Assembly (NCBI GenBank): GCA_965248535.1
Contig: CBDFJR010000005.1
Location: 768,001-832,000 of the forward strand
Origin: Phormidesmis sp.
GTDB lineage: Bacteria > Cyanobacteriota > Cyanobacteriia > Leptolyngbyales > Leptolyngbyaceae
Length of the DNA stretch: 64,000 nucleotides
Direction: 5' to 3'
Shown: positions 25,558 through 26,343 of the stretch, piece after piece
Layout of the letters: the number at the start of each line of letters is the position of its first letter
How positions within the stretch are numbered: position 1 is the first letter of the stretch
Position numbers and translations under genes: made by a program
Notes under the pieces: generated by a model
What the model saw: the letters and a program-made list of their open reading frames with translations, nothing else
Database searches by the model: none
Told to the model about the DNA's origin: nothing

Positions 25558-26343
25558 GCATAACGACTAAGATAAGCGGCGGCAGATAACCTTTGCATCC
25601 CCACAAAGATCTCGCGCCCGTCCGCTTCATCGACTTGTGTACGCCCAGCATGGGTGTGAACTAATGGGGTGAAAGTCCCCTGTCGGAGAACCAACGTCCA
25701 AATGATCCCAAAAGATCCGAGTGACGACAACGACTAGCTTAAGGTAAGGGCGTTTCCGCGAGGAAGGGTCTGAAGGAAGCCAGCGGCAAATCTGCGAGCT
25801 GACGGACAGAAACGTCATAGAAGGCTGAGATTCCTGTGGCAAGTGAGCACAACATCATGAAGCCTTTTGGTTCAGGGAACACAGTAAATGACGCAGTTGT
25901 GCAGAGACAGTTCACGTTCTTATCTGGGGAGATCTGCTCAAAGGGCGGTCTGAGGGTCTACGGGAGTCTGATTGAGGTCTAGCGGGAAACGGCTAGGGAG
26001 CCACGGAACCCTAAGGACATTCAGGCAGCGTGAGTCATGGCAACAGGACTCATGATTGAGCAGAAGTCAGCAGAGGTCATAGTAGCCAAACACTCACCGT
26101 AATGGGTGAGACAGGGTGAAGGGCTGAACCTTAGAAAGCAGGGAGGAGTTGCAAAGCTCGACTGGGCGATGAACCCGAACGGGGGAGCTATTTTGTCGGC
26201 GCTTAACTGCACAACCAGCCCTGGATATTCAGTTCTATTGAACTGGCTTGTCTAAAACTTTTCTGGGGACGCGCCCCGTGCGGAGCCGCACGCGGGGTGC
26301 CGTGGGGACTGGGGGAGAAAATCCCCTGGTTACCCGATTAGCC
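25558..26343 (-). other. integron attC site 2 (86 bp), interrupted by a group II intron
   Basis: 25558-25638 joined to 26339-26343 rebuilds GGCTAAC AAGTCGATGAAGCGGACGG...CTGCCGCCGCTTATCTTAGTC GTTATGC. Confidence 0.8.
25639..26338 (+). ncRNA. ORF-less group IIC-attC intron (700 nt)
   Basis: 5' GTACGCCCAGCATGGG, GGGGTGAAAGTCCCC, TTATCTGGGGAGATCTG, GCAGAAGTCAGCAGAGGTCATAGTAG, GAAGGGCTGAAC; short IIC domain V with CGC triad (about 26268-26303); domain VI ending ACCCGAT; inserted at TTGT/TA; no RT ORF. Confidence 0.88.

Follow-up and report, generated by a model that had tools for sequence, protein, structure and literature searches.

How a group II intron with no reverse transcriptase (RT) gene comes to occupy a recombination site of an integron cassette array is the question raised by a 64,000-nucleotide stretch of Phormidesmis sp. 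DNA (contig CBDFJR010000005.1 of assembly GCA_965248535.1, forward-strand positions 768,001 to 832,000), called the window here. Positions 25639-26338 on the plus strand of the window are a complete group II intron of 700 nt without an open reading frame (ORF) for an RT, and the intron splits an attC site. The reading that best accounts for it is an ORF-less lineage that arose by one deletion, was mobilised in trans into attC sites and is now probably stranded. Taken as a whole, we put this reading at a probability of about 0.8. The host genome (G000) has 5.03 Mb in 5 contigs, is 99.76% complete and contains 11 phycobilisome-family matches.

Boundaries, copies and domains of the intron

Rfam models were used to locate the ribozyme. 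When the whole window was scanned, two models passed the gathering threshold: RF02001 (group-II-D1D4-3; 127.8 bits) covers 25752-25918, and RF01998 (D1D4-1; 63.7 bits) covers 26029-26124. The model for domains V and VI, RF00029, was absent from this gathering-mode scan of the window and matched 26269-26338 with 43.5 bits, against a gathering score of 40, in a more permissive E-value scan of 25300-26700. An Rfam scan had been suggested as a check on the original prediction, which had called an ORF-less group IIC-attC intron at 25639..26338 from the letters of the window; domains I-IV and domains V/VI are matched.

A search of the host genome with the 700-nt intron returned ten matches. Six loci, including the window copy, are 100% identical across nt 1-700, and in all six the similarity ends exactly at the intron edges (25638/25639 and 26338/26339 in the window). 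The remaining four matches have 99% identity over nt 2-700, 85% over 1-700, 79% over 1-447 and 88% over a fragment, 443-572. Identical ORF-less copies at other attC sites, for which a BLASTN search had been proposed earlier, thus number five besides the window copy, and a single copy, which had been named as the sign of an inert relic, is not what the genome holds. Together with the Rfam matches and the attC target, the exact ends of the six copies uphold the original call of an ORF-less IIC-attC intron. Because the six copies are identical, the intron appears to have been mobile in this genome recently. The 99% match (L007, G000 C2:609290-609979) is a seventh copy that has lost its first G and about 10 internal nt and is preceded by ...GGGTTGC; by its sequence it is a decaying copy.

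The intron is divided as follows.

25639..26338, plus strand: ORF-less intron of group IIC-attC type, from Rfam, six identical loci and covariation in 10 family members.
25639..25643, plus strand: 5' end GUACG, the lineage form of the 5' consensus.
25644..25928, plus strand: predicted domain I (RNAalifold consensus, columns 6-297 of alignment A1), with RF02001 inside.
25929..26068, plus strand: predicted domain II (A1 columns 298-439), helices 15-20.
26075..26125, plus strand: predicted domain III (A1 columns 447-498), inside RF01998.
26129..26268, plus strand: domain IV remnant of 140 nt without an RT gene (A1 columns 502-655).
26271..26300, plus strand: domain V, 30 nt, from the RF00029 alignment.
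26303..26336, plus strand: domain VI, from the RF00029 alignment and the consensus fold, with 14 pairs, 5 of them compensatory.

Domain I is predicted to be closed by a helix in which 25644-25662 pair with 25909-25928. The helices of domain II include 18 pairs changed on both sides, and the basal stem of domain IV has three pairs with compensatory changes. Domain V consists of a 9-bp lower helix, CGC at 26272-26274, an AC bulge at 26290-26291, a 3-bp upper helix and a 4-nt loop; its 12 pairs are 100% paired across 10 sequences and 2 are compensatory. Most group II introns carry AGC at the position of this CGC, which is typical of class C. Domain VI has an unpaired A at 26332, 7 nt before the 3' end, and the intron terminates with ..CCCGAU at 26338.

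The group II boundary consensus is 5' GUGYG and 3' AY; the window intron has GUACG and the terminal dinucleotide AU. The original prediction had pointed out GUACG in place of GUGYG, and the sequence is as it described. GTACG begins 27 of 28 scored family copies (GTCCG begins one) as well as the plasmid integron intron L014 described below, and since these share it, GUACG is judged from the alignment to be the normal 5' end of the lineage and not a lesion.

Insertion into the attC site

The intron lies between two pieces of one attC site, attC2.

25554..25638, plus strand: 5' part of attC2 (bottom strand), from an nhmmer match at C5:793554-793638 (E 6.5e-16), alignment with 11 other attC sites and the empty-site fold.
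26339..26346, plus strand: 3' remainder of the R'' box, TAGCCTGC, which pairs with the R' side in the empty-site fold.

The 5' part comprises the R' box GCATAAC, the L'/L'' arms and the start of R'', closing in TTGT (intron-binding site 1, IBS1); the first T of TAGCCTGC is IBS3. When the two halves were rejoined they folded as a hairpin with TAACG paired to TGT/TA (dG -16.4; z -2.6 against 200 simple shuffles), the extrahelical bases being assessed by eye. An alignment of 12 attC sites shows flanks made of an RYYYAAC-type R', imperfect L'/L'' arms and a GTTRRRY-type R'', with the intron between the GT and the T of R''. The earlier proposal of an insertion at TTGT/TA in an attC site agrees with these flanks, which form an attC-like hairpin with the insertion point in the R box.

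The same target recurs at the other copies. All six identical copies are preceded by ...AGCGG..(~30 nt)..CCGCT.....TTGT and followed by TA or TG, and the 99% and 85% copies likewise lie behind attC-like sites whose flanks are unrelated. An nhmmer profile of this attC subtype found 34 sites in the genome, and 8 of the 34 directly precede an intron 5' end. Target bases were tallied at 28 of the 29 listed insertion sites (L065 was left out): T at -1 and G at -2 in 28/28, T at -3 in 25/28, T at -4 in 20/28, and T at +1, the first base of the 3' exon, in 26/26 copies that have a 3' end. Most ORF-less copies from the junction-pattern and family searches described below follow attC-like sites; L019 and L022 follow other hairpins.

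Identical copies might also have been produced at the DNA level by cassette duplication, integrase shuffling or gene conversion. Integrons do shuffle cassettes, two integron integrases in this genome exceed the TIGR02249 cut-off and have three intron copies within 5 kb, copy L005 and the RT-bearing intron L011 resemble each other in their 3' flanks, and gene conversion could maintain copy identity. Set against this, none of the six copies is identical to the others beyond the intron edges, the attC halves and downstream sequences differ by site, and every insertion has the same target base and orientation, the signature of reverse splicing. DNA-level copying is therefore a very improbable source of the six copies.

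Intron RNA was sought in public data. Near-identical intron words occur in runs labelled as biocrust, sediment, glacier, lichen, hot-spring and ice metagenomes, scored as shares of sampled words. Four RNA or metagenome runs were aligned, all as contigs, from which strand, level and splicing are not readable. Intron pieces are present in three ice metatranscriptome libraries, and one contig in each of the three joins 25638 to a diverged copy of 26339 onward, giving an intron-free TTGT/TAGCC in a relative that is ~92% identical. These sequences confirm the position of the exon junction.

Assignment to group IIC-attC and likely location of EBS1

The class of the window intron was judged by comparison with L014, the ltrA intron of a class 1 integron on the Serratia marcescens plasmid CP083755, where the gene order is intI1, blaIMP-26, ltrA (on the opposite strand), qacEdelta1 and sul1. 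L014 follows AATTGT, starts GTACGCCCAGCATGGGC, finishes CTACCCGAT before TAG and matches the same three Rfam models in the same order as the window intron. The two introns share the 5' end GUACGCCCAGCAUGGG.. and all but a few bases of the first ~45 nt, a 30-nt domain V with a three-pair upper helix, a 3' end ..ACCCGAU followed by TA, and an ACAA-containing loop that reads GCACAACA in the window and GCACAAGA in L014. They differ in that the window intron has the 140-nt domain IV remnant instead of an RT/maturase gene and occurs in many identical copies per genome in chromosomal attC clusters of a cyanobacterial host, and over the first 300 nt (domains I-III compared) they are only ~71% identical.

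According to the accessible parts of PMC7923331 and PMC3001079, IIC-attC introns insert into the bottom strand of the attC R'' box at the consensus TTGT/T, opposite to cassette transcription. The window intron shares this bottom-strand target and orientation with S.ma.I2 and its relatives as they are described there. The cyanobacterial relative L031 has an intact RT of 454 aa, whose best solved match is GsI-IIC RT with 439 bits, compared with 128 for LtrA and 97 for a T. elongatus-type maturase. The RTs of the relatives are 53% identical to ltrA of Enterobacterales, Vibrio and Aeromonas plasmids, these being the best named plasmid matches, and the one context examined among the matched plasmid ltrA genes (H25) is a class 1 integron. 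The IEPs (intron-encoded proteins) of IIC-attC introns form a monophyletic clade among class C RTs, and the window intron encodes none. These comparisons support assignment of the window intron to the group IIC-attC type, with membership in the attC subclade argued from RNA features and target site.

Two loops were considered as exon-binding site 1 (EBS1).

25727..25730, plus strand: earlier EBS1 candidate ACAA, placed by the consensus fold in an internal loop of a hairpin early in domain I.
25847..25854, plus strand: terminal loop GCACAACA of a late domain I stem, with the likelier EBS1, ACAA at 25849-25852, complementary to exon TTGT.

The bases homologous to 25727-25730 are ACAA in 16, CTAA in 10, AGAA in 1 and ATAA in 1 of 28 copies, and TTAA in L014. 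These variants come without matching exon changes, and all of the introns that have them follow ..GT exons. The candidate at 25727-25730 was rejected on this ground, since the site varies in 12/28 copies and in L014 despite the retained ..GT exons. All eight positions of the GCACAACA loop are invariant in 10/10 sequences, and its closing stem covaries at two pairs. EBS1 of group II introns is generally located in such a late domain I terminal loop, and ACAA at 25849-25852 is the likelier EBS1 of the window intron. The original prediction of ACAA pairing with TTGT therefore keeps its sequence and probably not its position.

The G033 copies L020 and L037-L044 carry CTAA at the counterpart of 25727-25730, and GTGT or TAGT exons occur in 7/10 CTAA copies compared with 0/16 ACAA copies. 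This link was set aside as support for an EBS1 at that site; it needs differing pairing registers and involves two or three independent lineages only.

An ORF-less lineage in cyanobacteria

To see how widely the intron occurs, 90 genomes from the family of the host were searched at the DNA level. Matches were found in 37/90 genomes and 18/27 genera, and the full or near-full ORF-less form is present in 11 genomes (G000, G081, G084, G071, G033, G064, G032, G025, G023, G056 and G047). Ten copies, drawn from nine genomes, can be aligned over their whole length, domain IV being unbroken in 10/10, and have 77-90% identity to the window copy. The RNAalifold consensus contains 210 pairs in which 97.7% of cells are paired, compared with 36-45% when partners were slid, and 61/210 pairs are changed on both sides, compared with 7-19 when slid. 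Shuffles reached the observed value in 0/500 trials on four of five measures and in 5/500 on the measure of further pair types. The covariation indicates that the ribozyme fold is under purifying selection. Because ten copies from nine genomes align end to end and 61/210 pairs are compensatory, the comparison identifies the ORF-less form as an old lineage and not a local deletion.

A pattern spanning the deletion junction was found in 18 stretches of one-genome-per-species contigs, and 17/18 hold the intron family. The taxa on the record labels are Stenomitos, Phormidesmis, Kovacikia, Leptolyngbya, Leptolyngbyaceae, Coleofasciculaceae and Thermosynechococcaceae. The eighteenth, in a Rhodobacter metagenome-assembled genome (MAG; guanine plus cytosine fraction, GC, 0.68), holds no intron and was rejected as chance.

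Twelve ORF-less copies and 11 RT-bearing introns were compared over their first ~500 nt in a maximum-likelihood tree, with the plasmid intron as an outgroup on a long branch. All RT-bearing rows lie on one side of a branch with support 82/65, and one state change suffices to explain the distribution. The RT-bearing intron of the host genome, L011, falls within a clade of support 100/98, apart from the window copy. The shared domain IV junction is a better argument than the tree for a single deletion, as judged from the alignment.

The original prediction had left two possibilities, a non-autonomous derivative moved in trans or an intron that lost its RT in place. The first fits identical copies at six attC sites with unrelated flanks and the presence of the same form in at least nine genomes. 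Loss of the RT at this very site, leaving an inert relic, would draw on the decay of the RT-bearing relative in the same genome, which shows that such decay occurs here. It is contradicted by the position of the window copy, which does not group with its own genome's RT-bearing intron and is not closest to it, by the recurrence of this 700-nt form, domain IV junction included, at six host sites and in at least eight other genomes, and by the selection on the ribozyme fold. We consider in-place loss extremely improbable.

A recent burst is also seen in the near-closed genome G033, where nine 698-nt copies differ mutually by no more than 4 nt.

Several copies have an unusual arrangement. The ORF-less copies L018 (G084:C1), L021 (G064:C509), L072 and L063 stop at nt 662 inside domain V, and L018 and L021 continue with the same foreign sequence, which starts GTGCGATTCG. 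An RT match with a 536-aa open frame lies ~750 nt further in G084 on the same strand as L018, and Rfam domains I-IV are absent from the examined flank of the L018 insert. The nt-662 insertion looks like a second group II intron within domain V, a twintron. In the first 80 nt of L067, a Thermosynechococcaceae MAG contig, an intron 3' end ...TTACCCGAT abuts TACGCCCGGC, which is the 5' end of another copy minus its first G; the two introns are head to tail with no exon between. Two contigs (171 kb and 69 kb) of a MAG that bears the name of an alphaproteobacterium, Rhizobium sp., carry mini-introns 91% and 80% identical to the window copy, L071 and L074, behind attC-like sites. The GC of these loci is ~0.49-0.50, and they may represent mis-binning or transfer outside the cyanobacteria.

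The domain IV remnant

Domain IV holds what is left of the coding region.

26139..26223, plus strand: conserved proximal domain IV (GGAGG, ATG and onward; A1 columns 512-596).
26169..26255, plus strand: 28-codon mini-ORF with its ATG at 26169, a relic of the RT N-terminus.

In RT-bearing relatives, the sequence homologous to the 5' part of domain IV is the start of the RT ORF, its Shine-Dalgarno region and opening codons. Mean column identity is 0.914 in proximal domain IV, where 55/85 columns are invariant, 0.923 in domain V and 0.765 in distal domain IV. The start region of the lost RT gene is thus conserved like domain V, which fits mobilisation in trans. The accessible text of PMC2882425 describes DIVa as a critical region for binding of the intron-encoded protein (IEP) in IIA introns. 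By analogy with the ORF-less introns of T. elongatus, 26139-26223 is proposed as a docking site for a trans-acting intron protein.

The mini-ORF was described originally as 28 codons from 26169 in place of an RT, and both its ATG and its length are borne out. As a gene it was rejected: the peptide from this ATG ranges from 8 to 60 aa across 10 family members, and the frames part after ~20 residues. The MNPDGG motif is internal to the RTs of L011 and L031, at about residues 8-14.

The missing RT partner

A trans-mobilised ORF-less intron is expected to have near-identical copies at matched, separate targets, which the host genome contains, and a closely related IEP-encoding intron in the same genome (PMC4424553, PMC3245105), of which the host genome yielded one with a split RT and no other group II RT. 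Several findings weigh against the preferred reading on this and related points. The host genome has one GIIM and two RVT_1 matches and no intact cognate RT. The cognate RT in G033, a genome of 3 contigs and 100% completeness, is split, with residues 3-109 and 105-445 lying ~8 kb apart. None of the 11 carriers of full or near-full ORF-less copies has an intact cognate RT in searches with the L031 RT at E <= 1e-60, 8/11 of them being drafts of 120-730 contigs. In the tree, monophyly of the ORF-less copies was not recovered; the base is a polytomy, and only the RT-bearing side forms a branch (82/65). The flanks of the contigs that bridge the exon junction are ~92% identical and so belong to a relative, and the contigs may show an empty site there rather than spliced RNA.

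The GIIM-matched RT of the host genome belongs to L011, a 1998-nt intron (G000 C2:1673018-1675015) that is also inserted after attC ...GGGTTGT and is related to the window intron with 79% identity over nt 1-447; RF00029 gave no match to L011 at E <= 0.01. An imperfect tandem duplication of ~85 nt (nt 781-960; G000 C2:1673798-1673977), with two repeat units that differ by small indels, breaks its RT into two frames. The full-length parent sought by the original prediction is thus represented in the genome by an intron of parent type, with its RT gene broken. The second host RT matches only RVT_1 in Pfam and may be retron-like by its sequence. Since the only cognate RT gene now present is disrupted, the copies in the host genome are probably stranded at present.

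RT matches in G056 contain three TGA codons or lie in two pieces, G023 has RT fragments with stops only plus a 39%-identical RT, and the remaining seven carriers gave no L031-type RT match at the same threshold. Intact-looking cognate RTs are present in eight other genomes (G024, G030, G076, G035, G077, G059, G063 and G069); in four of these 'intact' RT rows the stops counted may simply mark the natural end of the gene. Both the ORF-less and the RT-bearing form seem to be present in G063. The bursts may predate RT loss, or the RT may come from elsewhere.

In G033 the RT-bearing intron (L036 and L047; G033:C1:2201130-2211016) is interrupted after about RT residue 109. The insert contains a 405-aa ORF on the opposite strand that, by sequence reading, resembles the C-terminal part of a large serine recombinase.

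These broken genes are an argument for a lineage that does not depend on its cognate protein and uses a non-cognate RT (of retron type or from another intron class), an RT of a plasmid or phage, or reverse splicing by the ribozyme followed by host repair. Recent bursts, six identical copies here and nine within 4 nt of each other in G033, have occurred in two near-closed genomes whose cognate RTs are broken in different ways, and an intact cognate RT is missing from all 11 carriers. A preprint (10.1101/2024.08.31.610620), in its accessible part, reports protein-free self-integration by a group II ribozyme. The strong conservation of the start region of the lost RT argues in the other direction, as expected from dependence on the cognate protein, and DNA synthesis from the inserted RNA still requires an RT. 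The RT genes may have died after the bursts, and 8/11 carriers are fragmented drafts, a kind of assembly from which repeated RT-bearing introns are often missing; both forms seem to coexist in G063. Independence from the cognate protein is unlikely on this balance.

A related proposition, which we regard as unlikely, is that the mini-introns have survived the loss of their partner enzyme as a lineage, being maintained in several cyanobacterial families and still bursting where the cognate RT is broken or absent. If true, the lineage would either borrow a foreign or non-cognate RT or enter single-stranded attC hairpins largely by ribozyme chemistry, and its splitting of attC sites would also shape which cassettes can still move.

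The cassette array and the probable effect of the intron on it

The window array has further parts on both sides of attC2.

24343..24427, plus strand: attC1, intact and of another sequence subtype, a long imperfect hairpin GCATAAC..GTTATGC (dG -17.8).
24497..24829, minus strand: DUF5615/PIN-like ORF.
24826..25056, minus strand: DUF433 ORF.
29633..29724, plus strand: attC3, attC-like but somewhat degenerate, lying farthest along the array, from its sequence and fold.

A profile search of the genome with TIGR02249 found no integrase near this array, which is CALIN-like (a cluster of attC sites lacking an integron integrase). The Pfam-matched neighbour ORFs all lie on the minus strand, so that the intron runs antisense to the cassette genes, as originally described. 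The cassette between attC1 and attC2 (24497-25056, minus strand) encodes the DUF433/DUF5615 (PIN-like) pair with overlapping stop and start codons, and by these domain matches it is likely a toxin-antitoxin cassette.

Recombination of attC by the integrase needs the folded bottom-strand structure. The intron puts 700 nt between TTGT and TAGCCTGC, and we infer that this keeps the R box from assembling when the bottom strand of an occupied attC2 folds. With the R box split in this way, occupied attC2 is probably dead to the integrase, and the two adjacent cassettes would be fused and act as one. The original suggestion that the intron locks neighbouring cassettes together is thus a reasonable structural inference.

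The host could have recruited the intron, either as a switch, with cassette pairs frozen by the splitting of attC, or to supply arrays without Pc with an outward promoter. The available portions of PMC3001079 and PMC8876359 report outward promoters, demonstrated in S.ma.I2 and predicted for other introns of the IIC-attC type, 8/34 attC-like sites of the host genome are occupied, and the window array has no integrase nearby. A sigma-70 scan found no promoter-like site on either strand of 25639-26338 and 3 in the whole 3.4-kb stretch, compared with 4.4 expected, by a simple method that is weak for cyanobacteria. An outward promoter of the S.ma.I2 kind was accordingly set aside, with the crudeness of the scan in mind. 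Conservation tracks the ribozyme and the putative protein-binding region, as for a selfish element, and the seventh copy and several relatives are decaying. Co-option by the host is improbable on these grounds.

Proposed mechanism

The preferred reading, deletion followed by mobilisation in trans, would proceed as follows. An ancestral RT-bearing intron would have lost ~1.3 kb of its RT/maturase gene in one deletion that left the complete ribozyme (domains I-III, V and VI) and proximal domain IV near the old ribosome-binding site and start codon. The 700-nt mini-intron would then have spread as its own lineage among cyanobacteria. It would be transcribed from the strand antisense to the cassettes and spliced with the aid of an IEP supplied in trans by an RT-bearing relative. 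The resulting RNA-protein particle would reverse-splice into the folded bottom strand of an attC site directly after TTGT, recognising its target by 3-4 bp of EBS1-IBS1 pairing (ACAA 25849-25852), a one-base EBS3-IBS3 contact and the attC hairpin. The borrowed RT would finally copy the inserted RNA into DNA.

Comparison with known systems

In the searchable portion of the literature, attC-targeting introns encode an RT or are broken copies of those that do; here the lineage is ORF-less, conserved and multi-copy. The surveyed IIC-attC papers, in their accessible parts, contain no ORF-less IIC-attC intron, and class C-attC work of 2008-2009 may mention one. About a quarter of one attC subtype (8/34) is occupied in the host genome, and the intron may slow the movement of cassettes in chromosomal integrons and CALINs. 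It also provides a small natural IIC-attC ribozyme for studying recognition of DNA hairpins and an opportunity to test how far an intron RNA outlives its protein partner.

The TeI3 introns of T. elongatus are chloroplast-like IIB introns that use EBS1/EBS2 pairing and are not known to target attC. The available text of PMC2882425 (Mohr et al. 2010) describes 17 ORF-less introns in T. elongatus that derive from one deletion and keep ORF remnants, and E. coli mobility assays in which ORF-less introns were tried with the IEPs of other introns, some called 'driver' IEPs. Like the TeI3 introns in this account, the window lineage goes back to a single loss of the ORF between shared breakpoints, keeps traces of the ORF ends and the proximal part of domain IV and has many identical copies in a cyanobacterial host, and the TeI3 introns are mobilised in trans by related IEPs according to those authors. 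Unlike TeI3, which as described there is found in one genome with intact driver IEPs, the window lineage is spread over several cyanobacterial families in carriers without a detected intact cognate IEP.

ORF-less bacterial group II introns are described as rare and almost always accompanied by a related IEP in the accessible parts of PMC4424553 and PMC3245105. The first of these names a single known exception, C.te.I1 of Clostridium tetani, an ORF-less intron with robust in vitro self-splicing whose genome has no IEP. The window element resembles C.te.I1, so described, as a bacterial group II intron that lacks an ORF and whose genome offers no intact partner RT, and differs from it in being multi-copy and in lying between genes in attC sites. 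UHB.F1 is portrayed in the available part of PMC7923331 as a decay product, a 5'-truncated IIC-attC intron with a frameshifted RT in a soda-lake cassette array. Like the window element, UHB.F1 is a defective IIC-attC intron that lies antisense to the cassettes of an environmental array. Unlike UHB.F1 as it is portrayed, the window element keeps both ends and all catalytic domains and belongs to a form that is conserved and proliferating.

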